From the IMG/VR virus record IMGVR_UViG_3300032893_000003, positions 14,633 through 78,632 of that record: a stretch of DNA of 64,000 bases. One strand, given 5' to 3'. Made by a program: the position numbers and the translations under genes. The notes beneath the pieces were generated by a model, which was given only the letters and a program-made list of their open reading frames with translations, did no database searches and was not told the origin of the DNA. Below are positions 3,001 through 44,148 of the stretch, in pieces (the stretch's first letter is position 1; every line of letters starts with the position of its first letter). Source of the DNA: a virus. Taxonomy: Duplodnaviria > Heunggongvirae > Uroviricota > Caudoviricetes.

Positions 3001-4686
3001 CACAATCTGAAACTCTTAGGCGATAAGTATGCTTATGAAAGTGGATTTACTTCCACCATCAGCGACACTATTGCCGATACTAAAACGCGAGATGCCCTCT
3101 TTAAAAAAGCTGATATCGAGGCAGATAAGCTCAGAAAAGCGATGAAGCCTGGTCTTGAGCGCGACAACAAAATCGCAACGCTTTACGAAAAGGCAGCGCA
3201 AGACTCTTATCAAAACATCAAAGAACAGCTCAAGAAAAAGGACTCAAGCTTTTACCACATGGTTGAATCTGGCGCGCGTGGGAAAAACGAACAGCTCATG
3301 CAAATGGTCTCAGCTCCAGGGATCGTGATGGATGCAAAGAACCACAAAGTTCCAGTACCTCTTAAGAAGTCCTATGCCGAGGGAGTCTCGACTTCCGATT
3401 ACTTCATGTCAGCCTATGGTGTTCGTAAAGGGATGATGGACAGATCCATCCAAACAGAAAAACCTGGCGCTATGAACAAGGACATCATGGCGGCTGCAGC
3501 TGACCACATTGTTCACGAAGTTGATTGCGGCTCTAAAAAAGGTGTGACGCTACCGCTATCAAGTTCGGATGTGCAAGACCGAGTTTTGGCGCATGACCAG
3601 CACGGACTTGCGCGCAATACACCCGTCACTCCACAAGTGGTTGCCGCTCTCACAAAAGCCGGAATTAAAGACGTGACAGTCAGAACCCCTTTGCGTTGTA
3701 ATTCCTCTAAGGGAGTTTGTGCCCACTGCTTTGGTAAAGATGAATTTGGTCAGCTTCCGCAAGTGGGAGACAACGTCGGAGCCAAATCGGGCCAGACAAT
3801 GACAGAGCCTGTAACGCAATTCGTCATGAAAACTTTCCACACAGGCGGCGTATCGACAGGCGCACCCACAGCCAAAGGCTTTGAACGCGTCAGCCAGCTT
3901 CTCAATATGCCTAGCTACGTGTCTGGTGAAGCAGCCCTAGCCCGCCACAAAGGCCGCGTGACAAAGATCTCTAAAACGCCAGCCGGAGGTTATGATATTC
4001 AAGTTGAGGGAACTCCCCACATCGCACGCCCCGGGCTCACACCTCAAGTTAAAGTTGGGGATGTCGTCGAGGCTGGAGACAAGCTCACAGACGGTGTTAT
4101 TCGACCCCAGGAGCTTTTAAAACACAAAGGAATGCTCGCTGCCCAGAATTACATCGTCGATGAGCTTAAGAAAACCTACGCCCAACAGGGCGTTCCCATG
4201 CAGCGAAAAGTCTTTGAAACCGTAGTTAGAGCCGCCACAAACAACACTCGAGTTGTCGAAGCTCCTAAGCACACAGACTTTTTACCAGGGGATATTATCC
4301 CCTATACCACAGCGCTTCATTACAATGAGACCAGGAACGTGACAGTTCCGACAGACTCGGCTGCCGGGTATTTCTTAAAAGAGCCTGTTGGCAAGCTACC
4401 ACAGTTTCACGAAGTGACCCCAAAAGATGTACAATACCTAAAAGATATGGGCCATAAGCAGCTCTCTGTCTTAAAAGATCCGCTTATCCATGCGCCCATT
4501 ATCAAAGGTATAACCGAAGTTCCAGCCTTCCGTAAAGACTGGATGGCGCAGCTTGGATATCGCTACTTAAAACGCACACTCACTGAGGGTGCGGCGCAAG
4601 CTTGGAAATCGAATGTCGAAGGAGCACATCCGGTGCCAGCATTCGCTTACGGAGCAGGTTTTGGTAAAAAGAAGGAGCACTACTAA
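1..4686 (+). CDS. rpoBC: Multisubunit-type RNA polymerase, beta C-terminal half fused to beta' (5'-truncated by window)
   Basis: Frame 1 is open from base 1 (VPFLKNDQGNRTMM resembles beta IPFLEHDDANRALM). Beta motifs DKLAGVHGNKGV and PDILLNPHG. Beta' motifs VLMNRAPSLH, catalytic NADVDGD, CNSSKGVCAHCFG and trigger loop EPVTQFVMKTFHTGG, with no stop between the halves. Confidence 0.95.
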   Translation, partial: FSSAKVDYVLPHPTALFSHSTNLVPFLKNDQGNRTMMAAKMLGQAIPLVNREAPNVQTMSPSGRTFHEEFGERFSLKAPAEGTVTAVTPDYIKIGNEKITLYNNFPLNQKTSVHHQPLVKVGDKVRKGQLIADSNYTQGGTLAVGKNLNVAYLAYPGYTFEDGIVITESAAKKLAAEQTYKHAFKLEAGKKETNLRRFLSYYPNTMTKDMMGLYDPEGVIKKGSVVKPGQILIAGLNYAAHSPENMTLRRLSRTLTIPWSNAAVKYTGEFEGVVTDVVKRGDEINVFVKAIEPARESDKLAGVHGNKGVITKVIPDSEAPRTKDGRIPDILLNPHGIIGRINMGQLYESAAGKIAQKTGKPYVVTNFDEHETNKKVEADLKKHGLSDTEEMFTADGKSLGHVNFGSPYILRLAKTGKTGFSARMPGQGYDVNRQPVKGGEEGSKALDQLTFFSMLSHGAKKNLLDAHVKSERNDEYWHAIEMGKIPPTPHTTFAFDKFMSLLRGAGINADKRGPEFVLAPMTDETTKKLSKGKISEFNFLYGKNLKEIKGGMFDTQITGGMNGTNYAHIELPERMPNPVFENAIKSLANIKQPQYDALVAGTMHLGKDGRLSQTPSPGSKTGGPAIAELLKNVNPETEIPRLKLLLKKTTNESDINKINKKIRYLAALRDMGTSADEAYTRKLVPVVPPQYRPIQEIQNRGLVVSPPNYLYQSLGILSEAHDHPVMKFLDDSEKTQLRAETYKASRALAGLEDVYTRGKSQPTRGFISQITNATPKQGFFLDKLITKKQDIAGRGVIVNGPDLHMDEIGIPEKMAKTIFRPFTVREFTTAGYKPDMARKEIEAGTPLAKRMLEAAMSKRTVLMNRAPSLHKFSVMAFKPRLTEGLAVRVPPLVFKGYNADVDGDTVTLHVPVSEEAIRESTKMFPSNNLWKPGTGELMTTPSQEAAIGLYFLSQSEKGRGVINNALPPKYHVTSTLSARAAKELYNKIAKEDPVKFPNIVHNLKLLGDKYAYESGFTSTISDTIADTKTRDALFKKADIEADKLRKAMKPGLERDNKIATLYEKAAQDSYQNIKEQLKKKDSSFYHMVESGARGKNEQLMQMVSAPGIVMDAKNHKVPVPLKKSYAEGVSTSDYFMSAYGVRKGMMDRSIQTEKPGAMNKDIMAAAADHIVHEVDCGSKKGVTLPLSSSDVQDRVLAHDQHGLARNTPVTPQVVAALTKAGIKDVTVRTPLRCNSSKGVCAHCFGKDEFGQLPQVGDNVGAKSGQTMTEPVTQFVMKTFHTGGVSTGAPTAKGFERVSQLLNMPSYVSGEAALARHKGRVTKISKTPAGGYDIQVEGTPHIARPGLTPQVKVGDVVEAGDKLTDGVIRPQELLKHKGMLAAQNYIVDELKKTYAQQGVPMQRKVFETVVRAATNNTRVVEAPKHTDFLPGDIIPYTTALHYNETRNVTVPTDSAAGYFLKEPVGKLPQFHEVTPKDVQYLKDMGHKQLSVLKDPLIHAPIIKGITEVPAFRKDWMAQLGYRYLKRTLTEGAAQAWKSNVEGAHPVPAFAYGAGFGKKKEHY

Positions 4687-4874
4687 TGTTTACCAAAGGG
4701 TTTGAAAAAACAGCGATCCGCCTCAGTAGAATCGGCAGTAAAGCCGGCCGTCATCTCGCGCGCCACCGGAAAGATTATCTCATGGGAGCTGCAGCCGTGG
4801 GCTCGTTAGGCACCGCTTACGGAGCCAATAAAAGTAAGGAACTTGAAAAAGACCAGGCCTCAATTAGTGCCTAA
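4686..4874 (+). CDS. Small protein with MFxxGFxKxA leader (putative head cargo)
   Basis: Starts MFTKGFEKTA; ATG overlaps the RNAP stop (TAATG). Confidence 0.8.
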   Translation: MFTKGFEKTAIRLSRIGSKAGRHLARHRKDYLMGAAAVGSLGTAYGANKSKELEKDQASISA

Positions 4875-4887
4875 AGGAGCATTATCA

Positions 4888-5448
4888 ATGTCCGATGAAA
4901 TGGTAAAACTTGCGACTGAAGAGCTTAGAGAAATCGCAGAAGCTAAAGAATTAAAAAAGCATGGTTTTGTGGGCGGGTTTAAAAAGACGGCTGGAAAAAA
5001 GAAAAATAAACTTCGCTTTAGCCCGATGATGAGCCAAAAAGAAATCTGCAAATACATTGATAAAAAATCCGATCACGTTCCAAAGACTGGCTATGCAGAA
5101 GGTCCCGCCGATCAATATGTCTGGCACTTTGAAAAATCACTTCCGTTAGAGTTTGCGAAAGCGATTAAAAAAGACTGGCTCGGATGGTTCCAGGACGAAC
5201 AAGACGAATGGAAGTATAACCACGGACCCTATGAACGGTCCAATCACTTTGATAAATGGTCTGATGAGCCAGAGCTAAAACCCATTATTGTGGTCAAAGG
5301 AACTGACGGCAGACTCCATATTTGGGACGGACACCATCGTATAGGCAAGTGCTTAACGATAGGTAAAAAAGAAATCCCAGCTATAGTTGGGGTACGAAAA
5401 GATGGTAAATCTGATCGCGGAAAACCCGTTGCAGAAAAGAAAAAATAG
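4888..5448 (+). CDS. ParB/Srx-like domain protein with internal leader motif
   Basis: AAGGAG RBS before ATG 4888; PIIVV...WDGHHRI ParB-like motif; HGFVGGFKKTA near the N-terminus. Confidence 0.7.
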   Translation: MSDEMVKLATEELREIAEAKELKKHGFVGGFKKTAGKKKNKLRFSPMMSQKEICKYIDKKSDHVPKTGYAEGPADQYVWHFEKSLPLEFAKAIKKDWLGWFQDEQDEWKYNHGPYERSNHFDKWSDEPELKPIIVVKGTDGRLHIWDGHHRIGKCLTIGKKEIPAIVGVRKDGKSDRGKPVAEKKK

Positions 5449-5450
5449 CC

Positions 5451-5762
5451 ATGTTCACCAACGGATTTTTAAAAATAGCTAAATTTGATATAGCCGCTGC
5501 CGATAAAGAAATCGACAAAGGTGTTCATAAGATTCAGGTCGATACTGCCTATAAATGGGGTGGACTTGCTATCGCGGCTTACCAGAGATATCTCAAGACT
5601 AAGGACCCCAAATGGCTATTTGATGGCGATGAGTACTATCACGAATCGGTTGAACATGCGGCTTTAACTGAATACAAAAACCCCAAAACTCTGAAAGCTG
5701 TGCAAAGACAAGTGGGGCCAATCAGAGAGAAATCCCATAAAGAATTTGGCGCACTGGAGTAA
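5451..5762 (+). CDS. Hypothetical protein with leader MFTNGFLKIA
   Basis: Tightly packed ORF carrying the leader motif. Confidence 0.8.
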   Translation: MFTNGFLKIAKFDIAAADKEIDKGVHKIQVDTAYKWGGLAIAAYQRYLKTKDPKWLFDGDEYYHESVEHAALTEYKNPKTLKAVQRQVGPIREKSHKEFGALE

Positions 5763-5764
5763 CA

Positions 5765-6922
5765 ATGTTTATCGAGGGGTTCTTAAAAATAGCTTATCTC
5801 GAAAAGCGCCCTTACAAGTCGCTCGAGATCGGTAAGCTCAACCCCTCAAAAGAAGATGAAGCCTGGACTGCCAAAATCGACGGAGCGCATACAATCATCA
5901 ACATGAAAAAGGGAAAAATGCCGAGGCTTTTTTCCCATAGAATTTCAAAACGCACGGGCAATCCTATCGAATACACTCCAAAGCTCACTCATATTAAGAA
6001 CAAAAGTCCTGTGACAGCAGTTCTGCGTGGCGAAACCTTTGCAGTCGATGAAAAAGGCAAAGCTGTCCATCCAGATACCGTCACAGCCATGCTCAACAGA
6101 ACGGTTGAAAGATCTCTAGAACTTCAGAAAGAAAAGGGCATAAAAACTAAAGTTGCTCTCATCGATGTCGACGAGATTGGCGGCAAATCTGCCTACAATA
6201 AGCCCTTTGAATTTAAGAGAAAATTTATGGAAGGAATAGCAAAGAAGAACCCAGACTTTGTTCTACCTTCTATTGCCTACACCCAGTCTGAAAAAAAGAC
6301 TTTACTCAAAAAAATTCAGACCCATAAACTTCCAGAGACTAAAGAAGGACTCATCGTCCACAACCTCCATGAGCCTGAAAAACCCTTTGCAAAAGCTAAG
6401 ATAACCGCTGACCATGATGTCTACGTGACAGGGATTTACAAAGAAGAAAGCCCTACTGGCCGTCAGCCTATGGCCGGGGGTTTTGAATATTCCTGGGATC
6501 CTGGTGGCGAGATGGTAGGTCGAGTAGGAACTGGCTTTAGCCACGCGATGAAAGTGGACATGCTTAAAAATCCTGAAGATTACATCGGACGGGCAGCCAA
6601 AGTAACGGCCCACGATATCTCTCGAAACAAGGTCTTAATGAAGCCTTCTTTTCAGGGCTGGCACGTGGAAAAGAATATAGGGGATAACCCAGGGTTTGCT
6701 AAGCAAACCGTGATCATAGATAAATCACTGGTCAAGGATAGGGCTCACGCCCAGACCCTGGCCAAACCCTTTGCCGATCGCATTTATACGTCCAGGGAGA
6801 CGGGCTCTAGCTTTCGTTTTAGACAGCTTCCGCCAGGAAAATTCGTCCCAGGGACGTTTAAGACCTTCAAACCTAAGGAAGGAATTGCTATAGTGTATGG
6901 ACAGCTTAAAAAGGAGAAGTGA
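5765..6922 (+). CDS. ATP-dependent DNA ligase-like protein with leader and an extra C-terminal domain
   Basis: AKIDG (KxDG adenylation motif), RGETF, KEGLIV, AKAK, OB-fold GRVGTGFS; N-terminus MFIEGFLKIA. Confidence 0.8.
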   Translation: MFIEGFLKIAYLEKRPYKSLEIGKLNPSKEDEAWTAKIDGAHTIINMKKGKMPRLFSHRISKRTGNPIEYTPKLTHIKNKSPVTAVLRGETFAVDEKGKAVHPDTVTAMLNRTVERSLELQKEKGIKTKVALIDVDEIGGKSAYNKPFEFKRKFMEGIAKKNPDFVLPSIAYTQSEKKTLLKKIQTHKLPETKEGLIVHNLHEPEKPFAKAKITADHDVYVTGIYKEESPTGRQPMAGGFEYSWDPGGEMVGRVGTGFSHAMKVDMLKNPEDYIGRAAKVTAHDISRNKVLMKPSFQGWHVEKNIGDNPGFAKQTVIIDKSLVKDRAHAQTLAKPFADRIYTSRETGSSFRFRQLPPGKFVPGTFKTFKPKEGIAIVYGQLKKEK

Positions 6923-6924
6923 CC

Positions 6925-7185
6925 ATGTTTACCGACGGATTTAACAAGGTGGCAAAAGAGCTTACTACCGCTGCGCGTAAAAAAATACCGAAGAGCGAGT
7001 TTGCTCTGCCTGGTGCACACAAAGGCGAAGCCAATGAAGGAAAGTATCCGATTCCTGATAAGGCTCATGCTCGAAATGCTTTGGCCCGCGTAAGTGCGTA
7101 TGGCACACCGGAAGAAAAAGCCAAAGTGCGCGCGAAAGTGCATAAGGAATTTCCGGAGATCGGCAAAGATCATAAAGAAGACTAG
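6925..7185 (+). CDS. Small phage protein (YPIPDKAHARNALARV domain, possibly DUF6582-like) with leader MFTDGFNKVA
   Basis: ATG 6925 after AAGGAG; the domain is recognised from memory only. Confidence 0.75.
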   Translation: MFTDGFNKVAKELTTAARKKIPKSEFALPGAHKGEANEGKYPIPDKAHARNALARVSAYGTPEEKAKVRAKVHKEFPEIGKDHKED

Positions 7186-7187
7186 CC

Positions 7188-7355
7188 ATGTTCGTCCGCG
7201 GCTTTGAAAAAACTGCTAAAATAAAAAAGCCGCAGAAGAAATGCGTCTGTGCTGACGATCGCCCTGGTATTGACCAAAATATTCGGGCACAGCGGCCAGC
7301 GGAATTAGTCGATCGCCCGCTTGAAGGAGGACACGATGTTTACAGCTGGGTTTGA
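7188..7355 (+). CDS. 55-aa leader-bearing protein missed by the ORF track
   Basis: Manual translation: MFVRGFEKTAKIKKPQKKCVCADDRPGIDQNIRAQRPAELVDRPLEGGHDVYSWV*. Confidence 0.75.
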   Translation: MFVRGFEKTAKIKKPQKKCVCADDRPGIDQNIRAQRPAELVDRPLEGGHDVYSWV

Positions 7356-7809
7356 AAAAACAGCCCTCTCAGTACCAAGCCCGGGTGCCGCTATCGGCGC
7401 TCTGAAAGGTACTGCGCGATCAGCGACTAAAGCTGTAAAAGGTGCCGTTGAAAAGTTCAAAGGGCGAGAGTACGAAAAAGGTGTTCAAGCCTTTAGAAAA
7501 GCGACCACTGGAAAAGCTCGCGAAACAGGCACTAGTCTTTATGGAGCGCGCGCGCGAAAGCTCCAAGCCAAAGGCAAAGCTCCATCTTTTGAAGAAGCTG
7601 AGCAGATGGCTAGAAAATCAAAAGCAGATGTCTATAAAAGAAAAGCCACCATGGCAGAAAGTAAAAAAGCACGCGAGCCCTCTTTCGCCCGCAAGCATCC
7701 TTTCCTGACTGCAGGCGGTTTGTATTTAGCCGGCCGCGCAGCTTTTGGCGGCGGTGATGAAGATAAGCAGACCTCGCCACAACCGCAAGTTTATCAACCT
7801 AACTATTGA
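7336..7809 (+). CDS. Basic Ala/Lys-rich protein with leader MFTAGFEKTA
   Basis: AAGGAGG RBS before ATG 7336. Confidence 0.8.
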   Translation: MFTAGFEKTALSVPSPGAAIGALKGTARSATKAVKGAVEKFKGREYEKGVQAFRKATTGKARETGTSLYGARARKLQAKGKAPSFEEAEQMARKSKADVYKRKATMAESKKAREPSFARKHPFLTAGGLYLAGRAAFGGGDEDKQTSPQPQVYQPNY

Positions 7810-7814
7810 TAGGT

Positions 7815-7836
7815 AATTAAAAGCCCTTGTGGGCTT
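7815..7836 (-). terminator. Possible intrinsic terminator
   Basis: Minus strand AAGCCC-ACAA-GGGCTT followed by TTAATT, at a convergent boundary. Confidence 0.45.
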
Positions 7837-8202: not shown

Positions 8203-8229
8203 CTTATACCCGAAAAAGGGCTATTTTAG
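8203..8229 (-). promoter_or_regulatory. Phage promoter motif copy (CTAAAA-N15-TATAAG)
   Basis: Nearly identical to the copy at 24625-24651. Confidence 0.6.
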
Positions 8230-8661: not shown

Positions 8662-8673
8662 AATTACCTCAGA

Positions 8674-28730: not shown

Positions 28731-29069
28731 ATGTTTATAAAAGGATTCCATAAGCTGGCTGTGGCTGTCGTGACCATGACTCCTGAAGAATATTTCCAAA
28801 CGGTTGGGGAAAAAGATCCCTACATGGGTGCCGTAGGCGGTGCAGCTCTCGGGGCTTTGCATGGGCTGCGCAAAGGTAAAAAGGGCGGCAAAGGTAAGGC
28901 TGGTTTGATCGGGGCTGCGGCCGGTGGGGCGGCAGGCGCGACGGCTGGCCATTACGGCGGCAAACTCTTGCGGCGCTATCAAACAGGTAAAGTACATCGA
29001 ATGGCTGAAGAATTGAAATTGCGATCAACGCCGGCTCGAAAAGCCTATATGCATCACGAGGAGGACTAA
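28731..29069 (+). CDS. Gly-rich protein with leader MFIKGFHKLA
   Basis: First gene of the head module; GGAG RBS. Confidence 0.8.
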   Translation: MFIKGFHKLAVAVVTMTPEEYFQTVGEKDPYMGAVGGAALGALHGLRKGKKGGKGKAGLIGAAAGGAAGATAGHYGGKLLRRYQTGKVHRMAEELKLRSTPARKAYMHHEED

Positions 29070-29072
29070 GTC

Positions 29073-29924
29073 GTGACATTTTCTAAAGAAGTTCTTAACG
29101 AATTTGCCAAACTAGCTGCTGACAATTATTTGAAAAATAAAACGCCTCTTAACAAATCTCTGCAAAAGATTGCAAAAGACGAATCTTTGGAACCCCATCA
29201 AATTGAATACGTTGCGGCGACTGCTAACCACAACGTCTGGGAAAAGCTCTATGGGATGGACAAAAAGGCAAGTTACGATTTCCCCGTTGCCGACCCCGTG
29301 GCCATTATTGGCGATCTTCAGGTAAAGCCTAAAGTCATCAAGGAAGCATCTCTTGATTATTTGGGCGCTCCATCAGCGCACGGGTTTACCGAAAAGACGG
29401 CCTCTATTGAACTTGATAGCCTTGACAAAATTGCTGCAAAAAAACGTCTTCTTAAAAAACAGCTCCAAGAACGTATGGAGAAATGCTCTGTCGCAAAGGA
29501 GGAGTTTGAGCGTCAGATGTTCGTTCTTCATTCCCGCTATGAAGAGCATGAGCGCGACCTGATTAAGCAAGCCCGGACTCTGATCCTTGAGCAGCCGTTT
29601 GAGCTGCGCGGCGAGGCTATGATAAAAATTGCTGAATTTGTAAACGCAGCCTGTGGTGATGAAAAGACCTTTGCCCGCGGAATCATGAAAAAGCTTGCGG
29701 CTGTTGTTAAGGGTCAAGGGCTTATTAAGCAGGCCGATCTCAAAGCGCCGGAAGAGTATATCGCTGATAAACTCCCCGCTAAGATCGTAAATGGTCGCCA
29801 CGCGCTTTACATTACGATCCAAACTCTTCGAAATATCCGTCAAGAATATGATTCTTTGAACCGCGGCTATGAAATCGTGGATAGCTCGCTACCGGAGTTG
29901 AAGGAGAAGATCCGTGGTCTCTAA
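29073..29924 (+). CDS. Putative head/core protein with K-x-A sites
   Basis: GTG start, GAGGAGG RBS; FAKLA, IKEAS, EKTAS, DKIAA, IKQAD. Confidence 0.75.
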   Translation: MTFSKEVLNEFAKLAADNYLKNKTPLNKSLQKIAKDESLEPHQIEYVAATANHNVWEKLYGMDKKASYDFPVADPVAIIGDLQVKPKVIKEASLDYLGAPSAHGFTEKTASIELDSLDKIAAKKRLLKKQLQERMEKCSVAKEEFERQMFVLHSRYEEHERDLIKQARTLILEQPFELRGEAMIKIAEFVNAACGDEKTFARGIMKKLAAVVKGQGLIKQADLKAPEEYIADKLPAKIVNGRHALYITIQTLRNIRQEYDSLNRGYEIVDSSLPELKEKIRGL

Positions 29925-30093
29925 GGGATTTGTTAAAGGCTTTTCTAAAACTTCTGGTGTACTTGGCACTGTTGCAAAGAAAACTATCGGTGCTTTGGGC
30001 GGTCCTTTGAACGTTGGGCTAACCCTTTTGGGTGCTGGTTCTGAGGCGGCCGAAGGCATGAAGAAGATGAAAGCGGCTGGTGTGAGGACTTAA
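29914..30093 (+). CDS. 59-aa leader-bearing protein missed by the ORF track
   Basis: GTG after AAGGAG; MVSKGFVKGFSKTSGVLGTVAKKTIGALGG...GVRT*. Confidence 0.7.
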   Translation: MVSKGFVKGFSKTSGVLGTVAKKTIGALGGPLNVGLTLLGAGSEAAEGMKKMKAAGVRT

Positions 30094-31307
30094 TGAAGAA
30101 AGTTGCTGAACAAGCTCAACATGATTTAGATTGTCTCTTGAAGCTCGCGGCGACCCGCAAAGGCATCAACTGGGAGTGGGCTAAGTCTGTTGCAGCACCT
30201 TTGCTTGGGACTTTGGCGGCGGCTGGCACAACGGGTCTTGCGGCATATTACTTCAGCAAAAAAGACCGTGAAAGACACGAACAAGATTTGACTAATAGTC
30301 TCAATGTTTTGAGGAAGAGCCCTGAACTCGCTAAGAAAGAACCGCAGAAATTAATTGAGCGGTTTGGTGAGTTGACGGTTATTTCTCCGACTATTGCAAA
30401 GAGCCCGACACTCGCGGCAAAACTTCTTCAAAATAAAATCGATACGGGATTTGACCCTGATGATATCCACAGACTGACTGCAATTGAAAGTGGTGTTGCT
30501 CATCAGGGGGGCATCCACCCGGGCGCGGCCGGTATGGCGAGTGCAGCGTCCACGTTTCGGACAATGGTTCAAACTTTTGGACCGACTATGTATCACCACA
30601 TCCATGAAAGCACAAAGAAACGCGGCCGGCAGTTAGAGGATCTTGAGAAAAAAGAAGAAGAGCAAAATCTTGAGGCAATGGCTGAACGTTTCGCAGACAA
30701 AATGATGAAAAAAACTCAGGCGGGGTCTATGGAAAAAAAGAGTTCTGAACAACGTGTGAGCGATGAATGCTTAGGGCAGATGCTTGCTGAACGCTTTATA
30801 TTATTGAAGACGGCAGGTGTAGGCGATCTTCTAGCAGGGGGCGCTAAGCGTTTTGGCGAACAGCTTTTGTGGGCAGCTCCCGCTCTGGCTTTGGGTGGCG
30901 GCATCGAGCTTGTAAGACAAGCTATCGAAAGCCGGCGAAACAGAGCTCTTGAAGACCAGGCCGATAAGAACTTTAAAGTCATTATGAAGGATAGCGATGT
31001 CGCTAAGGGAAATCCGCAGATTGCTCTAGAGGCATTTAATACGTTAAAGGCTGTTGCTCCGTCTTTAGCTGCGCGGCCGCTTGTAGCAAATACGTTTATT
31101 GATCATGTTGTCACTCAAGGACGTTTGGCACCGGATACCGTTCAGCAAATCGCTGAAGCTGAGAACCAAGTTCGTGGCATTGGGGCTCCTGGACAAAAGC
31201 GCCCGAGCTTTGGCTTTATGTCCGAGCTTAAAGGAGCTATGGGTCTCATGGAATCAAAGTCAGATATGCCTAAAAGTCGTACCGCCAAGAAGGGGTATCT
31301 AAAATAA
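30093..31307 (+). CDS. Putative internal head protein (two related halves)
   Basis: KKVAE, LKLAA, LKTAG; the segments ISPTIAKSPTLA and VAPSLAARPLVA repeat. Confidence 0.7.
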   Translation: MKKVAEQAQHDLDCLLKLAATRKGINWEWAKSVAAPLLGTLAAAGTTGLAAYYFSKKDRERHEQDLTNSLNVLRKSPELAKKEPQKLIERFGELTVISPTIAKSPTLAAKLLQNKIDTGFDPDDIHRLTAIESGVAHQGGIHPGAAGMASAASTFRTMVQTFGPTMYHHIHESTKKRGRQLEDLEKKEEEQNLEAMAERFADKMMKKTQAGSMEKKSSEQRVSDECLGQMLAERFILLKTAGVGDLLAGGAKRFGEQLLWAAPALALGGGIELVRQAIESRRNRALEDQADKNFKVIMKDSDVAKGNPQIALEAFNTLKAVAPSLAARPLVANTFIDHVVTQGRLAPDTVQQIAEAENQVRGIGAPGQKRPSFGFMSELKGAMGLMESKSDMPKSRTAKKGYLK

Positions 31308-31310
31308 TAT

Positions 31311-33152
31311 ATGGACAAGCGGCTCATCTTTCCCAAGAATAACGGCCGCGAACGAGACATCTTTTTTGTCCGTGAGGACCGTCTTTATCTTCAGAAACAC
31401 GCGACCGCTTATCATCCGCGCGTTCAAGAATACATCTCTAAAGCAAAGCCCATGGAGGGTCTGATACAGATTCTTCTAACTGCCCTTGGCGGCTGGCCCT
31501 ATTGGCCACAAAACGTGAATGGAGATCGATTTTCTGTGCCGGCACTGTCCCACGAGGGACAAGATTACGGCTATCAGACATTCGTGAGTAACGCTAACTA
31601 CTTCGTCCATCACGTGAATAAAGATCCGGCTCTGGCGAAGGGCAAAGTTTTAGCGGCTGTGTGGAATGAAAGGGCAAAGCGAGTCGAGCTTGTGATCGGA
31701 ATTAATCCTGAGCTTGACCCCGATGCTGTTCGCGAGATCGATGCTGGGAATAATTTGGCATTTAGTATGGGCTGTAAACTCCCGTTTGATGTTTGCTCTA
31801 TTTGTGAAAATAAAGCAAAGACCAGACTCGAGTATTGCGATCATCTTCGCTATCAAATGAACCAAATAGATCCTGTAACTGGCATGCTTGTGGGTGCCTG
31901 GAATCCATTTCCCAAGTTCTTCGACATTTCCCGCGTTCTTATTCCGGCCGACAAGACGGCTTATATGTGGGAGAAGATTGCAAGTGCTGCCACTCCCCTA
32001 TCTAAAATGGGTTCTGCGGAGCTTGCAGAAACGCCGGCAAAATACTGGTTTGATGAGCAGTATCTAACCGAAAAAGTGGCAATGAAAACCGAGGCTTGGG
32101 CTGAGAAAACGTCAGCAAAAAAGTCGGCGAGTATCAACAAGCGCTCCACCATCACCAAGGAAATCCCCGTGACGAGTGTTAAACCTCTATTTATAGAGAA
32201 GATGCGACGAACAATACCGGTCATTAAGAATCTTCTCGACAAGTCGGCTGCCGACCTGGACATGGACCAATTAAAGGGATTTTCTTTACCTCAAATTTTG
32301 AGCACCCTTTTGGCATTGGGCGTGGTGCCAAAAGCTTCGGAGTCTAGCACGATTTATAACCTCTTTTCTAAGGACTCTAACCAAGATGCTAATGCATTCG
32401 GGCCGCAGGCTTTTTCACCGCTTCTTGCACAGAGACTTTTACCAGTCGCCGCAGAGCGTTCATTTGCGCGGCCAGTGCTACTTCGACGAATCGTGTTACT
32501 TTCTTGCAAACCAACAGAAGAGTTAAAGAAAATGGCTGCCGACGAGCGTCACAAGGGCTCATTTAACGCGGGGCTCGGTGCGGGATTGTTAGCCGCGGCT
32601 TTGGCGTTCAGTGGCAATCATGTTGTGCTGGGAAATTTGCTTGCCGAACATCCCTTTTTGACAGCCTTATTTGGGGCGACCATGATTCGCACTTTGCGAA
32701 GCCTTGGGGATTCGCGGCCGATAACAACCGGACAATATACTCTTGCGGAACCTGGCAATCCTTTATATAATAACGACTGGCAGAGACGTTTTGCCGAAGC
32801 GCAAGCACGACCTGTCACGGTTATAAAAACCGGTGCTGAGAACGAAAATTTATTCGAAAATACTTTTGGAGGCATTCCATTTTTGTTTGCCATTGAAGGT
32901 GTTAATCAGCAACCGGCAATCAAATTGTTTGAAAACAATCCGAACATTTTTAACAGTAGCTTGATGACAAAAGAGTCCAGCGACGTAGGGCAAGAGATTT
33001 CCCATCTTTTAACCTCCGCGCGCAGATTCCTAAAATCAGCTTCCTTGGAAGACCTAAACTTCTTGGAAGCCGTACCAGATCCAAGCCGAAATTCAGTCTG
33101 GGATTTAGCGATACTCAATGCTGCGGATAAGATTGTAAGGAAGTTAAGCTAA
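31311..33152 (+). CDS. Prohead maturation protease with C-terminal extension
   Basis: YFVHH, FSMGC (putative catalytic Ser), CSIC...YCDH, FFDISRVLIPAD; domain ends WEKIASAA; upstream of scaffold and capsid genes. Confidence 0.75.
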   Translation: MDKRLIFPKNNGRERDIFFVREDRLYLQKHATAYHPRVQEYISKAKPMEGLIQILLTALGGWPYWPQNVNGDRFSVPALSHEGQDYGYQTFVSNANYFVHHVNKDPALAKGKVLAAVWNERAKRVELVIGINPELDPDAVREIDAGNNLAFSMGCKLPFDVCSICENKAKTRLEYCDHLRYQMNQIDPVTGMLVGAWNPFPKFFDISRVLIPADKTAYMWEKIASAATPLSKMGSAELAETPAKYWFDEQYLTEKVAMKTEAWAEKTSAKKSASINKRSTITKEIPVTSVKPLFIEKMRRTIPVIKNLLDKSAADLDMDQLKGFSLPQILSTLLALGVVPKASESSTIYNLFSKDSNQDANAFGPQAFSPLLAQRLLPVAAERSFARPVLLRRIVLLSCKPTEELKKMAADERHKGSFNAGLGAGLLAAALAFSGNHVVLGNLLAEHPFLTALFGATMIRTLRSLGDSRPITTGQYTLAEPGNPLYNNDWQRRFAEAQARPVTVIKTGAENENLFENTFGGIPFLFAIEGVNQQPAIKLFENNPNIFNSSLMTKESSDVGQEISHLLTSARRFLKSASLEDLNFLEAVPDPSRNSVWDLAILNAADKIVRKLS

Positions 33153-33163
33153 GGAGAAAACTC

Positions 33164-33820
33164 ATGGCCACATTGGAAGAAATTTTGGCAGAGGTAGGGC
33201 TTGGCGAATCTTCGCAAACGAAGACAGCAAGCGCTGCAGCTCCAAGTACAAAGGAAGTGAACGAAGTTTTGGAAAACCTAGGTCTTAATGAAAAAGTTGT
33301 TGAGGCTGAGGGCGTAACCAAAACTGCATCTGACGAAAGGACAAGTATGGGACTGACAGATCTTTACGAAAACATTTTCGGTAGCAATGGTGAAACCGCT
33401 GCCGCTGCTCCTGCCGCTGAAGCCGGCGCTGAAAAAACCGCTGCTGCTACAGCCGAAGCTGCTCCCGCAGGCGAAGTTTCCGACGAACCCTCTACAAATT
33501 TGGGTGAGTTGACTGGCATTTATTTCAATGTCATGCACGATGCTTGCATTGAAAAGATCGCTGGCGATCTTGAGATGGAAGCTGGCTCTGGCTACAAACC
33601 GCAAGAGCACGCTGGTTCTACTGGCGAATTGTCTCGGATTGTTGGTCAGGAAGGCGACCCCGCTGTACCGAACAACTATGACGCCTCAAGCGGTGCCGGT
33701 TTGAAAGCCAACCCCGGTAACCAAACTCCCTATTCGCTGAAAGCTCAAGCTCAAATCAAGGCGATTTTAAAACGTCGCACGAAGATGGAGCCGGGCGATG
33801 TCGGCGGATATAACGAGTAA
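33164..33820 (+). CDS. Acidic scaffold-like protein
   Basis: AAGGAG RBS; QTKTAS, VTKTAS, AEKTAA, IEKIAG. Confidence 0.65.
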   Translation: MATLEEILAEVGLGESSQTKTASAAAPSTKEVNEVLENLGLNEKVVEAEGVTKTASDERTSMGLTDLYENIFGSNGETAAAAPAAEAGAEKTAAATAEAAPAGEVSDEPSTNLGELTGIYFNVMHDACIEKIAGDLEMEAGSGYKPQEHAGSTGELSRIVGQEGDPAVPNNYDASSGAGLKANPGNQTPYSLKAQAQIKAILKRRTKMEPGDVGGYNE

Positions 33821-33847
33821 CTTTGAGAAGAAAGAAGGAGTTCAAAT

Positions 33848-34672
33848 ATGGATTTAGAGCAAGTAATTGAAAAAATGAGTCCGGAAGAACAAAAAAAGTT
33901 CTTGAATCTGGAGTTGCCTGAGGAACTGGAAAAAGAAGCCGCTGCCGAAGTTGCAGAAGCTGATTTCCAAAACGCTCTGTACGCCTACGGTGCTTTGACA
34001 GCCGATGTAGAAATCGAGTCTGAAGAAGCCGGCGAAGCGGGTCTTAGCAAAGAAGCTTCTGAAAACTTCTCTGCTGCTGAAGCTGAGATTGCTGAAGCCA
34101 TCGAAAACGGCTATTCCGAGCTTGGCTTGGATGAAGTCGAGAGCGATGAAGAGCTTCACAAAACGGCCATGGCCGCTGCTGCTTTGATTTTTGAAGGCTA
34201 CTGCGATCAGATGGAAAAAGTCGCAAAAGGCAAAGTTAAGGGCTTCATGGGCGCTATGAAAAAGCACATGGGCCGCGCAGCTGAAAAAGCAAAAGCTCTT
34301 GGTTCTGCTGCTATGAAGCACGGCAAAAAGGGTGTGGCTCTTGTTAAAAAGCACCCGGGTAAAGCAGGCCTTATCGCTGCTGGTACCGCTGCTGCTGGCT
34401 ACGGCGCTCATCGCATGATGAAGAAAAAAGCCGATGAGCTGACAGCTGCTGAGCTCGTGGACATGGCACTTGAGAAACAAGCTACTTTGGATGTTATCGC
34501 TGACGGCGTTGAAAAACTAGCCGCCCACGGTAAAGGAAAAGGTGGTATGATTGCTAAAGGTCTGAAACACCTGAAAGCCCACGGCAAAAAGCACGGTAAA
34601 ATGTACGGTGCGGGTGCCGCTGGCGGTGTGGCAGGCTACTTAGCAGGTCGTATGCACAAGAAGCATGAGTAA
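33848..34672 (+). CDS. Scaffold/internal head protein with acidic N-half and basic C-half
   Basis: EKEAA, SKEAS, HKTAM, EKVAK, EKQAT, EKLAA. Confidence 0.7.
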   Translation: MDLEQVIEKMSPEEQKKFLNLELPEELEKEAAAEVAEADFQNALYAYGALTADVEIESEEAGEAGLSKEASENFSAAEAEIAEAIENGYSELGLDEVESDEELHKTAMAAAALIFEGYCDQMEKVAKGKVKGFMGAMKKHMGRAAEKAKALGSAAMKHGKKGVALVKKHPGKAGLIAAGTAAAGYGAHRMMKKKADELTAAELVDMALEKQATLDVIADGVEKLAAHGKGKGGMIAKGLKHLKAHGKKHGKMYGAGAAGGVAGYLAGRMHKKHE

Positions 34673-34675
34673 GAA

Positions 34676-35146
34676 ATGGCAGTTAAACCGCTTAAGGATC
34701 TTTTAAAGGAAGCAGATGAGTTTAGCCGTACACTCGGCGAAAGCAAAACTGCTTCTCCTAAAGTGGCCGTTTCTGACGAGGTTGCTGAGTTCGCACAAGC
34801 GCTTTTGAATGCAGATTCGATTAGCGTACGAGATGAAGGGTTTGAAAAGACGGCACTAGCATTAAATAGAGCCGAAGCCTTACTGCAAATCCAGACCCTT
34901 CAGAAGATCGCCCAGTTCCGGAAGCAAGCTGCTGCGGCAGGTTTCTCACCGGAACAAATTGAAGAAGCGATCAACAAAATAGCAGCTAAGAAAGTTCACG
35001 AGAATTTACGTATTCTCACGGCTGTAGATGGCATCGCTTACCAAGGTAAGGATACATCGCTTGAGAAAAAGAAGATCCTCGCGCAACAAATGGGTCAAGC
35101 CAAGGACGACAAAGACTTGACCAAAAGTTTGGGGTACGGGCTATGA
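34676..35146 (+). CDS. Putative scaffold/internal head protein
   Basis: SKTAS, EGFEKTAL, QKIAQ, RKQAA, NKIAA. Confidence 0.7.
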   Translation: MAVKPLKDLLKEADEFSRTLGESKTASPKVAVSDEVAEFAQALLNADSISVRDEGFEKTALALNRAEALLQIQTLQKIAQFRKQAAAAGFSPEQIEEAINKIAAKKVHENLRILTAVDGIAYQGKDTSLEKKKILAQQMGQAKDDKDLTKSLGYGL

Positions 35147-35493
35147 GCAAGACGATTACTGTTGAACAGGTAAAGCTCGCCGGAGAACTTTTGAGACGTG
35201 AACACGTAGCTCGTTTGACGATTGAAAAAGAGGCAAACGACTTAAAGCTTGAAAAGCGCGCGATGAAAGTTGCATTTCGTGAAGTAGAGCTTGGAATTTC
35301 TGAGCCTTATAAAACGCACGATGAGTTCCTAAACAAGATCGCGAATCTTGTAAAAGAGGACTTAGATGTTGTGGAAAAGGCTCTCGAACTTGGATACGGA
35401 TCAGCTCGCAAAAATGGTGAGCTGGCTGAATCGGCGGGAAAAGAAATGGACCCGCTGTCACGTTGGGTAAGACACGGCGAAGTAACTGATTAA
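35143..35493 (+). CDS. Putative scaffold-like coiled-coil protein
   Basis: ATGA overlap, directly before decoration and capsid genes. Confidence 0.65.
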   Translation: MSKTITVEQVKLAGELLRREHVARLTIEKEANDLKLEKRAMKVAFREVELGISEPYKTHDEFLNKIANLVKEDLDVVEKALELGYGSARKNGELAESAGKEMDPLSRWVRHGEVTD

Positions 35494-35510
35494 GAAAAGG
35501 AGTATTAACT

Positions 35511-35981
35511 ATGGCTACGCAAAGTGAATTAGTCGCACCAATTACAGTTGACCTACGGGCACCTGACTTGGATTTCGACATCATCAAAGGTATCGAGCAC
35601 GTCAACTATCAAGACGGCGCGCTTGTGGACAAAACGTTAACAGTCGCTCCCGGTGACTGGATGACCAAAGCTTCAAACGGCTTTGTCGTTCCTGCAACTG
35701 GTAACGCTGTTCCGAACGTTTACCCTGTTTGTGTTGGTAACACTCAGTATGATTCTATCGCTACTGGTGATCTGACCGTGATTGTAAACGGCGGGTTCTT
35801 GTACCAAACGAACAAATTCGTCGCAGGTTCTTACACTGTAGGTCAAAACCTCTGTGTTAAAGACTTGGGCGGTGGTGAGCGCGTTCCGTCGGCCGCAGGG
35901 TCGAACGACGCGATCGTTGCTCGGGTTTATGATTATGATTCTGTAAAAGGAATCATGACCATTCAGGTTCTGGATCGATAA
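35511..35981 (+). CDS. Head decoration/cement protein
   Basis: Beta-rich 156 aa immediately upstream of the capsid gene; AAGGAG RBS. Confidence 0.6.
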   Translation: MATQSELVAPITVDLRAPDLDFDIIKGIEHVNYQDGALVDKTLTVAPGDWMTKASNGFVVPATGNAVPNVYPVCVGNTQYDSIATGDLTVIVNGGFLYQTNKFVAGSYTVGQNLCVKDLGGGERVPSAAGSNDAIVARVYDYDSVKGIMTIQVLDR

Positions 35982-36104
35982 TCCCCGCGGGTCGTAAACG
36001 ACCTGTTGTGGAGATGCTTTTGCATCTCTTTGGGGTACGGGCGGTTGTTTATTCAGCCGCTTTGAAATGCTAACGAAACGCCAACCTATGAAGGAGGAGG
36101 CAAA

Positions 36105-37028
36105 ATGTTTTCAGAAGAAGCAGCAACATTTAACAACCTGTTTATCGAGCGGATGGACACGCAAGATGGACAGACGAAGACTGCTCAGGCAGGTCAAGCG
36201 TTTGTACGCTCGTTCCTGCGTGAACATTCTGTTGCGCGCAAGATTTTACCACCCGAGTCAGTTACGCGCGCAGATCTGACTCGCTCTACCCGCCATGACA
36301 CGCTGATCAAAATCGTAGATTTTGAGCATCCGTCGACTGCGGCTGCGATTAACTTTCGCTCGGCTGGCCGTGAGCGCTACCTCCAAGGTAAGCGCTATGC
36401 TGTGCCCTTCTTCAAAGTAGAGAGCGATCTCTTCACGAAGAATGAAGCTGAGTTGCTCGCTTACGAGTACCCGATTACTAAAGTAATCGAAGAAAACTCG
36501 ATCAAGGACATCATGTTCGTAGAGGACTCTGTGTTCTTGTCAGCATCTGCTGGTGCTGTATTCAATAGCGGTAAACAAATCGCTTCTGCCGATACGCAAG
36601 TATCGCGCGCCAACTTGAACAAACTGTTCAAGATGATCGATGTGGATAAACTCCAGTCGATGATTTGTTTGATGACCAACGTCGATTTCGACGATTGGCA
36701 AACCCAACAGGCCACGGATGTCGGTTCGCCGATGGCATCTGCGATGACCGTTGACGGCTACAAACACGACCATATTATGCGTCGTCGTTTGATCGTCACG
36801 AACAAAGTGGACCTGCTGACCCCCGGGACTCTGTATGCCTACACGGATCCTCAGTTCTTGGGTAACTTCTTCATCTTGAACGATGTTAAGTTCTGGATTA
36901 AGAAGGAAGCTGATAAGGTTTTCTGGAAGACCTGGGAATATGTTGGCATGGGTATCGCCAACCTGCACTCTGTTTCTCAGATCACTTTGCAGGTTCCGCA
37001 AATTATCCCTGGCGGCGGAAGCTTCTAA
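36105..37028 (+). CDS. Major capsid protein (HK97-like fold, inferred)
   Basis: Strong AGGAGGAGG RBS, 307 aa, position after protease and scaffolds, own terminator; QTKTAQA near the N-terminus. Confidence 0.8.
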   Translation: MFSEEAATFNNLFIERMDTQDGQTKTAQAGQAFVRSFLREHSVARKILPPESVTRADLTRSTRHDTLIKIVDFEHPSTAAAINFRSAGRERYLQGKRYAVPFFKVESDLFTKNEAELLAYEYPITKVIEENSIKDIMFVEDSVFLSASAGAVFNSGKQIASADTQVSRANLNKLFKMIDVDKLQSMICLMTNVDFDDWQTQQATDVGSPMASAMTVDGYKHDHIMRRRLIVTNKVDLLTPGTLYAYTDPQFLGNFFILNDVKFWIKKEADKVFWKTWEYVGMGIANLHSVSQITLQVPQIIPGGGSF

Positions 37029-38274: not shown

Positions 38275-39186
38275 ATGGTTGATGTTTCATTCAAACTTTT
38301 CCAAGCGCTCCCTCTATCTCGCTTTCCGGCGAAGGTTCTTGTCACATGGCAAATGAACAAGGGTGGTGCTGACCTCGCGGACTACGAATTCTATGTAGAG
38401 CGCGGTGAGGCGACGGAGAATATTCCTGGGTTTCAGCACGTAGACATCTATCAAAACCCGCTGCCGGCGACAGAGCATTCGCCTACTGTAAACTTTGTTG
38501 CTATCAGTAAAGCAATCAGTGGTCTTGATAATCTTCAATACCTTGATTATTCAACTCTACTTGAGAGCTTAGCTAGAAATTTTTGGTACCGTATTCGTTG
38601 CAGGAAAATATCTACTCAAGAAGATATCCTTTCGAGTATGTTTTCTTACGAGGGGGTTCTTGATCCGGTAGGGATTTATGTCACTGATGAAATCAATTTC
38701 CAGTTGGAAGACGTGAGTGGTGTGCCCTCACTTGTGTATAATCGCAGACGTGGTGGAGTGCCGTGCGGTAAATGCTTTGATCCGATCCAGAAGAAGAGGC
38801 TTATCTCTCAGTGCACGAACTGCTATGGGACGAACTGGGAGAAGGGGTTTTACGATCCAATTGATTGCTATGTCGGCTATGACCCAAATCCTAAAAATGC
38901 CTTGATCACTCAGTGGGGTGAAGTTCAGGAAAATCAGTCACGTCTTTTGATGTCTAATTTTCCGGTACTTCAGCCAGGTGATATTATTCGAGAGATACGG
39001 ACCAATAGGCTTTGGAGAGTGGTGCGCGTAGATCTGACTGAGAAGCGCAGGACTTTGCTGCTTCAATTTCCAGTTGTAATGGAGATCAAGCCAGGAGACG
39101 TCGAATACCACATCGTGCAAGACGAGCGGCTTGCAGTCGATAAGATGGAAGAATTATCAAAAACCAAGAAGCTTCGGGAGTTTTAA
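38275..39186 (+). CDS. Putative neck/head-completion protein with Zn-binding Cys pairs
   Basis: PCGKCFD...CTNCYGT; C-terminal beta-barrel PVLQPGDIIRE. Confidence 0.55.
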   Translation: MVDVSFKLFQALPLSRFPAKVLVTWQMNKGGADLADYEFYVERGEATENIPGFQHVDIYQNPLPATEHSPTVNFVAISKAISGLDNLQYLDYSTLLESLARNFWYRIRCRKISTQEDILSSMFSYEGVLDPVGIYVTDEINFQLEDVSGVPSLVYNRRRGGVPCGKCFDPIQKKRLISQCTNCYGTNWEKGFYDPIDCYVGYDPNPKNALITQWGEVQENQSRLLMSNFPVLQPGDIIREIRTNRLWRVVRVDLTEKRRTLLLQFPVVMEIKPGDVEYHIVQDERLAVDKMEELSKTKKLREF

Positions 39187-39665
39187 TGTTCACGGAAGGT
39201 TTTGTTAAGACCGCTTACGACGAGCGGGAAGAGTATGAGAAAGCCAACAAGGTTGATAATGCCATCAGCAAATTCCCTCATGGAGAGAAACTCAAAGCCG
39301 GCGATCGTGTCGTTTATTACAACGATGATCGTGGATGGAAACGCGGTCCATGGGCCCACCATACGAAGGGCTGCTCACATGATGAAGCAATGGATAAGCC
39401 GAGGGATGCCTATGAAAAGGCTCTTAAGAAAAAGGGCATTAAAGACGGCTTTGAACTTTCGCGCGAAGTGGATAAAAAGTTCCCGCGGCATCATAATGGT
39501 GACTGGAAAAAACACGCAGTAGGCATTGGTGATCTGGGGACAGTCGTTAAGGTTGATAAAAAAGGCGGTCTACCGCGCTATGATATTACGTGGGACAAGC
39601 ATCCGGATTGCATCTGGCCTGGCTATCAGGCGCACGAGCTCAAAGTTCCGCCGAAGGGTATGTAA
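39186..39665 (+). CDS. Protein with leader MFTEGFVKTA
   Basis: TAATG coupling. Confidence 0.8.
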   Translation: MFTEGFVKTAYDEREEYEKANKVDNAISKFPHGEKLKAGDRVVYYNDDRGWKRGPWAHHTKGCSHDEAMDKPRDAYEKALKKKGIKDGFELSREVDKKFPRHHNGDWKKHAVGIGDLGTVVKVDKKGGLPRYDITWDKHPDCIWPGYQAHELKVPPKGM

Positions 39666-40981: not shown

Positions 40982-41010
40982 TGGACAGAAGTTTAAAAAG
41001 GAGTGTGTAA

Positions 41011-42972: not shown

Positions 42973-43002
42973 TCAAGGACGAACTTTTTAAGGAGTGATT
43001 AA

Positions 43003-43725
43003 ATGGCAGCAATTACGGATTTTTCAAACTGGGACTATAGCAATTACCACGTCCAGCAGGAGCTGCAGGGCGGACAATTCGTTTCGGCTGAGACAAGCTT
43101 GATCGCTTCGGGTCCGCCGCAACTAAATGGTACTGGCCCTTACTCTGAAGTTCCTGTCGGGCAGGTCGGTGCTGTTTACCCTTTGGGTCTTATAGAGAAC
43201 GCCGGTATTTCGCAATCCAAACAGATCCAGAAGATCTTTGAGATCGGTTCTAGCCGCTCGTATTTCATCCCAGGACGCGTGATCGGCTCTGTGAGCATGG
43301 GCAGGATCTTTTACTACGGTCCGTCGCTCTTACGCGTGCTGTATGCGTATTACTTCAACAACACGAATAACATCAATATCGGTACGGTCGATCCGTCGAC
43401 AAACATTACCCTTGCCGACGGCAGCTTGGCACAGTCACCATTAGCGCGGCTGCTTGATACCGGCTCGAATACCTATCACCAAGTTCGGATGTCGCCTGGT
43501 GAAGATCATTTCTACATCAACCTGGCTTCTGACCTGTTTAACCAAGGATTCGGGCTTGCCTTCTACTTTAAGGATGCAAACTTCAACTCCGTTGGTGCTT
43601 TCTACTTAGAAAACACTTACCTTCAAGGCCATCAGTTCAGCGTGAGCTCCGGTTCAGTGCTGATCATGGAAGGCGTAAGCGCGCAGTATGATCGTATTGT
43701 GCCGATTAAACTTCTGAATGACTAA
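43003..43725 (+). CDS. Tail tube protein
   Basis: Follows the sheath; GLIENAGISQSKQIQKIFEIGSSRSYFIPG. Confidence 0.8.
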   Translation: MAAITDFSNWDYSNYHVQQELQGGQFVSAETSLIASGPPQLNGTGPYSEVPVGQVGAVYPLGLIENAGISQSKQIQKIFEIGSSRSYFIPGRVIGSVSMGRIFYYGPSLLRVLYAYYFNNTNNINIGTVDPSTNITLADGSLAQSPLARLLDTGSNTYHQVRMSPGEDHFYINLASDLFNQGFGLAFYFKDANFNSVGAFYLENTYLQGHQFSVSSGSVLIMEGVSAQYDRIVPIKLLND

Positions 43726-43735
43726 GAGGTGAGTC

Positions 43736-44071
43736 GTGTTCGTTAAGGGATTTGAGAAGACAGCGATGCTTACCGGCGCAGCGATTGGTGCACTTGGTGG
43801 TGGGGAACGTGATCCCCATACCGGCAAGAAAAAACACCGCGGTATCGGTGCCCTTCGAGGGGCTGCTACCGAACTTGGAGCTGGTGTCGGAGCCGGTCTA
43901 GGACGGTTGGCAGGACATCTCGCTACGCGAAAGTCTAAGGACCTTATGGTGCCTCTTTACGGGCAGGCAATCGGCAGCTTAGCGGGCTTCCTTCCAGGGG
44001 CTTTGGCAGGCTACCGGCTGACCAAAAAGTATGGTCCCAAGTACGAGCATGAAGTAAAGCATAAGAAATAA
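43736..44071 (+). CDS. Gly-rich protein with leader MFVKGFEKTA
   Basis: GTG after GAGG. Confidence 0.8.
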   Translation: MFVKGFEKTAMLTGAAIGALGGGERDPHTGKKKHRGIGALRGAATELGAGVGAGLGRLAGHLATRKSKDLMVPLYGQAIGSLAGFLPGALAGYRLTKKYGPKYEHEVKHKK

Positions 44072-44076
44072 GGCCT

Positions 44077-44148
44077 ATGTCTTTTCTTAGCGGGTTTTTA
44101 AAACTATCAGCTCAAAGGTTATCCAAAGAAGCTAAAGAGACGAAGTAA
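44077..44148 (+). CDS. 23-aa leader-only peptide
   Basis: MSFLSGFLKLSAQRLSKEAKETK*; its stop abuts the stop of a convergent gene. Confidence 0.45.
   Translation: MSFLSGFLKLSAQRLSKEAKETK

Follow-up and report, generated by a model that had tools for sequence, protein, structure and literature searches.

A recurrent N-terminal leader ending in K-x-A as a candidate capsid-targeting propeptide in a tailed phage

A ten-residue leader recurs at the start of about 18 otherwise unrelated proteins, mostly small and basic, encoded by an uncultured tailed phage of the class Caudoviricetes (IMG/VR record IMGVR_UViG_3300032893_000003). The record is a single contig of 175,168 bp rated 100% complete, and the stretch of DNA analyzed here, hereafter named the window, comprises 64,000 nucleotides corresponding to its bases 14,633-78,632. 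The leader consists of one residue followed by F-x-x-G-F-x-K-(T/I/V)-A. Its end reads hydrophobic residue-x-K-x-A with a small residue next, and the same motif recurs in scaffold-like, capsid and protease proteins of the phage. We consider it reasonably probable that the leader is a propeptide recognized, and probably cut after its Ala, by the prohead protease of the phage, and that it loads a variable cargo, a DNA ligase and a ParB-like protein included, into the capsid.

Distribution of the leader in the genome and its relatives

The coding pattern F-x-x-G-F-x-K-x-A was searched in any frame of the whole genome. All 15 matches are on the plus strand, and a reversed-pattern control matched neither strand. 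When Ser was permitted at the last leader position, the counts were 20 and 0. Between 16 and 18 copies stand at the start of an open reading frame (ORF); from residue frequencies, fewer than 0.01 N-terminal matches to F2, G5, F6 and K8 would be expected among about 274 ORFs. Ten of the 15 exact copies lie inside the window. Eight further copies stand outside it, at genome coordinates 8031, 11452, 11856, 12056, 12401, 154344, 155206 and 155459. Genes for the terminase, the head, the tail and a fused beta/beta' RNA polymerase lie in plus-strand blocks of the genome, and replication genes (DNA polymerase, exonuclease) in minus-strand blocks. The earlier note on this DNA had placed all copies on the late strand, and the whole-genome counts bear this out; the strand and the operon position of the leader genes fit late expression. 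These genes are clustered in the interval between the portal and RNA polymerase genes, right after the polymerase gene, around the head module and behind it, and three copies are found in the tail/baseplate region. Both the motif and its strand bias are direct observations.

The ORFs of the window that carry the leader or a related sequence are as follows (window positions).

4686..4874, plus strand: 62 amino acids (aa), basic, MFTKGFEKTA
4888..5448, plus strand: 186 aa, whole leader motif G-F-V-G-G-F-K-K-T-A internal, coded by 4963-4992
5451..5762, plus strand: 103 aa, MFTNGFLKIA
5765..6922, plus strand: 385 aa, ATP-dependent DNA ligase (PF01068, phrog_114), leader ahead of the adenylation domain
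6925..7185, plus strand: 86 aa, phrog_16160 (function unknown)
7188..7355, plus strand: 55 aa
7336..7809, plus strand: 157 aa, very basic
28731..29069, plus strand: 112 aa, glycine-zipper-like, kept with its leader in five relatives
29914..30093, plus strand: 59 aa, GTG start, Gly-rich, a head-module core gene in relatives
39186..39665, plus strand: 159 aa
39665..40036, plus strand: 123 aa, degenerate leader MFTKGFKKKK without Ala; relatives of its body have the full leader
43736..44071, plus strand: 111 aa, GTG start, glycine-zipper-like
44077..44148, plus strand: leader-like, 23 codons, doubtful gene

All 13 copies that had been listed in the earlier note are present in the sequence at the positions given there, with five reservations. 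The copy in the 4888 ORF is internal, 24 residues in, the one at 39665 ends in K-K-K-K and lacks the Ala, and the ORF at 44077 has only 23 codons. The ORFs at 29914 and 43736 begin with GTG, and in the former the canonical motif begins at residue 6. Three copies are embedded, 24 residues into the 4888 ORF, 5 into the 29914 ORF and 54 into a head-module ORF starting at 34676. A minus-strand ORF of 114 codons (28735-29079) lies directly over the leader gene at 28731-29069; it is probably spurious, because the plus-strand gene is kept with its leader in five relatives.

The tagged proteins are basic, with a median isoelectric point of 9.75 compared with 7.8 for the proteome; values above 9 were obtained for 13 of 16 tagged proteins and for 91 of 274 proteins overall. 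The internal proteins of phage T4 are likewise basic. The tagged ligase matches PF01068 with 34 bits (cut-off 26) and phrog_114 with an E-value of 1e-20. A tagged ligase homologue is present in one relative (L012), and a tblastn search of phage records with the tagged ligase gave no match. The body that follows the embedded leader of the 4888-5448 protein resembles the ParB/Sulfiredoxin group and carries a D-G-H-H-R motif (Atlas feature score 0.92, structural TM 0.48). Its Pfam match was below significance, and the assignment is a lead only. A Pfam search with ten larger cargo bodies from relatives found nothing.

When the bodies were compared all against all by BLAST with the leader taken off, the sole matches were of low complexity, rich in Gly/Ala and confined to three or four proteins, in agreement with the earlier claim that the downstream sequences are unrelated. 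The same note had argued for selection on the protein. At the fixed positions all four Gly, both Phe, both Lys and four Ala codons are in use, Gly being encoded by GGT 4 times, GGG 5, GGA 4 and GGC 3. Synonymous codons are thus randomized and the residues fixed, so selection acts on the peptide, not on DNA or RNA, and a DNA- or RNA-level element was rejected as an explanation of the leader on this ground. The codons also bear on the idea that the leader is a relic of duplication or cassette recombination, a common 5' end copied along with its ribosome-binding site and without present function. Such an origin would agree with the grouping of the genes in a few hot spots. We regard it as very improbable, since the residues remained fixed while the synonymous codons drifted, and since the motif is kept in relatives with 59-93% core-protein identity, in which it is the most conserved part of the orthologues.

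The nearest cultured phages, Vibrio phages D181, D148 and D69 and Salmonella phage Arash, are distant, with about 31-34% polymerase identity, and the closer relatives, those with the 59-93% core-protein identity, are metagenomic contigs only. The motif scan, which the earlier note had suggested for the genome and its relatives, gave 11-21 copies in each of four related phage records (forward/reverse counts of 21/0, 11/1, 0/12 and 11/1; reversed controls 0). In this phage and its relatives, 66 tagged proteins fall into 44 body clusters, and the portability of the tag is borne out by this spread. In the family of orthologues of the 7336..7809 protein, which has five members, invariant positions are confined to the leader and a short C-terminal motif. 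The conservation and portability of the leader are direct observations as well. We also scanned 2.9 million viral contigs of the IMG/VR collection with the M-F...K-T-A version of the leader and obtained 35 stretches. The contigs with several hits were known members of the clade or three further contigs, of which two were tested; both encode the head protease described below (64% identity). In three single-hit contigs the head protease was not found.

Along the leader, positions 1-2, 5-6, 8 and 10 have a high information content, and the signal is at background level from position 12 onward; positions 2, 5, 6 and 8 were preset by the filter, and positions 1, 3, 9 and 10 were free. In 21 of the 66 leaders M-(S/A/G)-F replaces M-F. 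Met aminopeptidase removes Met before residues such as S, A or G, according to the rule as quoted in PMC10052503, and M-(S/A/G)-F and M-F leaders would thus both keep one residue ahead of the Phe. The common N-terminal register that would result points to recognition from a free N-terminus.

Small unrelated proteins also share an N-terminal tag where a single maturase acts on many substrates, and the leader could in principle be a recognition tag for a modifying enzyme, of the radical-SAM type that acts on ribosomally synthesized and post-translationally modified peptides (RiPPs). We give this almost no credence: the leader lacks the Cys, Ser or Thr pattern typical of such substrates, and no radical-SAM domain (PF04055) was found in the genome, which is rated complete, with control domains matched in 14 of 14 genomes. 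A search of a literature library with the motif strings found no paper with the K-x-A leader motif.

K-x-A sites in the head module and the prohead protease

The head module (window positions 29073-37028; 2,586 residues) contains the following genes with K-x-A sites.

29073..29924, plus strand: head-module protein, 283 aa, five hydrophobic-x-K-x-A-(S/A) sites at conserved positions
30093..31307, plus strand: head-module protein, 404 aa, L-L-K-L-A-A near the N-terminus and L-L-K-T-A-G internal
31311..33152, plus strand: prohead protease, 613 aa, gp21/assemblin fold at residues 45-225, long C-terminal extension
33164..33820, plus strand: scaffold-like protein, 218 aa, acidic, Ala-rich, three K-T-A sites as conserved islands
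33848..34672, plus strand: scaffold-like protein, 274 aa, four to five conserved hydrophobic-x-K-x-A sites
34676..35146, plus strand: head-module protein, 156 aa, S-K-T-A-S at residues 23-27 and G-F-E-K-T-A at residues 55-60, both conserved
36105..37028, plus strand: major capsid protein, 307 aa (phrog_2522), K-T-A at residues 25-27

K-T-A occurs 10 times in this module, with about one occurrence expected. The longer pattern [LIVMFY]-x-K-x-A-[SAGTQ] has 20 sites, whereas 500 shuffles gave 2.7 on average and at most 9. Its density is 7.7 per 1000 residues, compared with 0.70 in the rest of the proteome, an 11-fold difference. In the scaffold-like proteins the sites are conserved islands amid variable sequence. 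The capsid protein has its K-T-A at residues 25-27 in all ten relatives (K-M-A in one), and a cut there would leave 280 residues. An AlphaFold model of the capsid protein built from nine sequences had a mean pLDDT of 30.8, at which the K-T-A site is not placeable relative to an HK97-fold N-arm. Among 138 internal head-protein sites, the residue after the Ala is S or A in 105; among the 66 leaders it is G or A in 29. Head proteins of D181 and Arash follow the same site grammar, with eight sites in one 269-aa protein of D181. At the aligned place, the D181 and Arash capsid proteins have L-T-K-E-A-G and L-V-K-E-A-G, respectively, and small D181 proteins begin with MDKVA, MFKSAS or MSLVKEA.

The protein encoded at 31311-33152 has 531 homologues in the protein collection. 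By sequence it matched nothing in Pfam, the PDB sequences or a PDB profile search, and its match to phrog_18299 is weak (1e-5). Its N-terminal domain was modeled with a mean pLDDT of 78. Foldseek alone gave a weak result (best E-value 7e-3), and a second structural alignment was clear: the top match of residues 45-225 was T4 gp21 (Z 10.0, rmsd 2.8 A over 129 residues), followed by herpesvirus proteases (Z 8.4-8.9). His100, His101 and Ser152 are invariant. The N-terminus of the protease itself carries the motif as Y-L-x-K-(T/H)-A-(S/T), in which L27, K29 and A31 are invariant in 22 sequences with identity down to 44%; the N-terminal K-x-A is aligned in Arash protease gp222 as well (39% identity). 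The recurrence of the motif in head proteins is observed directly, and the fold of the protease is shown by its model.

When the protease domain was folded in complex with a leader protein, the score was 0.41 and the best control gave 0.00 (contact agreement between runs at least 34%, partner pLDDT at least 38), which is weak support: the mark is reached by 58 of 80 solved complexes and by 2 of 110 mismatched pairs, and passes at or below 0.60 are mostly wrong unless the guess was already likely.

The match between the leader end and the head-module motif, as opposed to any tail motif, also bears on whether the leader could serve another destination or stability, as a membrane or secretion tag, a tail/baseplate assembly tag or a signal for a host protease. 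Such a role would suit the several tagged proteins that are glycine-zipper-like or rich in Gly/Ala and the three copies in the tail/baseplate region, and K-G-F resembles, by eye, the G/F junction of type IV prepilins. However, the DNA ligase and the ParB-like protein, both tagged, are DNA enzymes of the cytoplasm, and the leader is followed neither by a hydrophobic segment nor by a Glu at +5. We consider a different destination, or a role in stability, improbable. A type IV prepilin or Sec signal in particular was rejected: the sequences after G-F are polar or charged, with no hydrophobic helix and no Glu at +5.

Further observations concern the protease gene and K-x-A sites elsewhere. The C-terminal extension of the protease (residues 275-613) contains a Gly/Ala-rich hydrophobic stretch and three more K-x-A sites. 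Two homologues of about 1000 residues, in relatives P0046 and P0068, carry the intein and homing-endonuclease domains PF14528, PF13403, PF05203 and PF14890, so an intein lies inside the protease gene in some relatives. Upstream of the window, a 366-residue protein encoded at genome positions 490-1590 has five hydrophobic-x-K-(K/T)-A-(S/Q) sites, the most of any protein outside the head module, and may be scaffold-like or another target of the protease. A protein of 723 residues without a known family (window positions 11639-13810) has three to four K-x-A sites within its last 220 residues and is possibly a processed virion protein.

A putative packaging route and its alternatives

The motif stands in the N-terminus of the capsid protein, in the protease, repeatedly in scaffold-like proteins and at the N-terminus of unrelated small proteins, and matches the pattern of prohead-protease sites known from T4 and phiKZ-like phages. 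The earlier note had read the K-x-A end as a cleavage site of a packaging tag. This gains from the same motif being found at conserved positions of head proteins, beside a protease of gp21/assemblin fold; encapsidation, removal of the leader, the position of the scissile bond and injection are what we infer from it. The last five residues of the leader would be the recognition site of the phage's own prohead protease, a predicted serine protease of gp21/assemblin fold fused to a long C-terminal extension. The cut would probably fall after the Ala; we propose this by analogy with herpesvirus assemblins, which have the same fold and a fused scaffold part and cut after Ala. The protease would use the same site on the capsid protein, which it would trim, on itself, for processing, and on the scaffold-like proteins, which it would chop. 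F2, G5 and F6, at a fixed distance from the free N-terminus, probably supply the affinity that would bring tagged proteins into the assembling prohead. The cargo would be a variable set of 15-21 mostly small basic proteins, together with the DNA ligase and the ParB-like protein; trimming would take place in the head, and the proteins would then enter the host along with the DNA and virion RNA polymerase. A targeting function like that of the T4 capsid-targeting sequence is suggested by the extra residues of the leader and by its N-terminal register.

Several results weigh against this route. The first 27 residues of the capsid protein are well conserved, which is atypical for a disposable propeptide. 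The F-x-x-G-F prefix is found in none of the 138 internal head-protein sites, and G-F precedes the Lys in one of them; the residue there is usually L or M. The leader is therefore more than a cleavage site. The G-F leader is lacking in Arash and D181. Arash is the only cultured distant relative with mass-spectrometry data (PMC10585845); the supplement holds annotation, and the coverage in Table 2 of that paper cannot show N-terminal trimming. DNA ligase was detected in the particle preparation (PMC10585845), but this proteome is weak evidence and no clean test, because it lists 116 proteins, replication enzymes included; many such enzymes bear the label 'structural protein' there. Finally, the K-x-A islands repeated in scaffold-like proteins could serve for binding instead of being cut.

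Some of these points would be accounted for if hydrophobic-x-K-x-A were a short docking motif with its partner on the inner capsid surface, at the portal or in a scaffold protein; the leader would then stay uncut and tether proteins in the head or elsewhere in the particle. The motif occurs many times over in the scaffold-like proteins, as a binding module would, residues 1-27 of the capsid protein are conserved, and the leader has conserved residues beyond those needed for cleavage. Yet the motif lies about 30 residues into the protease and at the N-termini of unrelated proteins, a placement known for protease sites of T4, phiKZ-like phages and herpesviruses, and a protease fold is present. 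We consider docking unlikely, though it is the main alternative to cleavage by the prohead protease.

Under the cleavage model, the closest parallel is the capsid-targeting sequence of T4, carried by internal proteins IPI-III and by Alt (Mullaney & Black 1996, cited in PMC10052503). In both phages a peptide of about ten residues stands at the N-terminus of unrelated, mostly small basic proteins, the leader ends in a motif that the gp21-fold prohead protease of the same phage also encounters in scaffold and capsid proteins, and the cargo set differs between relatives. The leaders themselves are unrelated (X-F-x-x-G-F-x-K-x-A here, MKTYQEFIAE in T4), and the putative site is K-x-A, compared with (L/I)-x-E in T4, Glu never being found at the last position of the leader here. 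The present phage is not T4-like: it has a fused virion-type RNA polymerase, a 307-aa capsid protein, a protease with a C-terminal extension of about 390 residues and 15-21 copies of the leader per genome, compared with about four in T4. Set against the T4 principle, the differences lie in the tag sequence, in the proposed specificity, which puts Lys at P3 and Ala at P1, and in the lineage, the protease architecture and the copy number.

In phiKZ-like giant phages, exemplified by SPN3US gp245 with the motif A-x-E (PMC10052503, PMC5694885), a gp21-family protease strips N-terminal propeptides from many head and ejection proteins, the propeptides have several sites each and a virion RNA polymerase is packaged. 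Propeptides there are long and lack a common ten-residue tag, and P1 is Glu, whereas Ala is proposed here. The herpesvirus assemblin (UL26) has the same fold and is likewise fused to a long C-terminal assembly part; its sites include Y-L-Q-A/T and V-Q-A/S, with the cut after Ala (PMC4498786). In these sites hydrophobic-x-A precedes Ser or Thr, an arrangement that resembles the N-terminal Y-L-x-K-(T/H)-A-(S/T) of the phage protease. In contrast, the assemblin site is no portable N-terminal tag and Lys at P3 is outside its consensus, and the phage cut after Ala is a proposal by analogy. In staphylococcal phage 80alpha, the capsid and scaffold proteins share an N-terminal leader with ribosomal protein L27, and the host protease Prp removes it. 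This parallels the present case in that a short common N-terminal leader is taken off phage head proteins, but it differs in using a host protease, a different motif and only two phage proteins, without a cargo tag.

We see roughly even chances for a stronger claim, that this is a second, independently evolved capsid-loading tag, with a receptor for the free N-terminus, a herpes-like, scaffold-fused protease that clips after Ala, and injection of 15-21 fast-changing proteins, DNA-repair enzymes included, throughout a clade of uncultured phages that have a virion RNA polymerase. Should the tag work in the way proposed here, the T4 principle, in which one short leader addresses any protein to the capsid, would extend to an unrelated lineage with another protease specificity, and portable packaging tags would evolve repeatedly alongside that specificity. 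Dozens of proteins of unknown function would become candidate injected effectors (anti-defense, DNA-protecting, ligase), and a second, orthogonal tag could be used to load foreign proteins into phage heads. A substrate motif would also be predicted for a large uncharacterized prohead protease family, that of the 531 homologues.

Neighbouring structural and polymerase genes

Two further genes, one upstream of the window and one extending into it, flank a cluster of leader genes.

genome 9025-10887: portal gene, matching the Arash portal (27% identity, E-value 1e-80)
window 1..4686, plus strand: C-terminal three quarters of the fused beta/beta' RNA polymerase, with leader genes immediately before and after it

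The polymerase ORF starts outside the window at genome position 13235 and encodes up to 2027 residues, with the beta-like and beta'-like parts in one ORF. In Arash, the two parts are separate genes, gp206 and gp216, and the polymerase homologue gp206 was the most abundant protein in particle mass spectrometry (PMC10585845).

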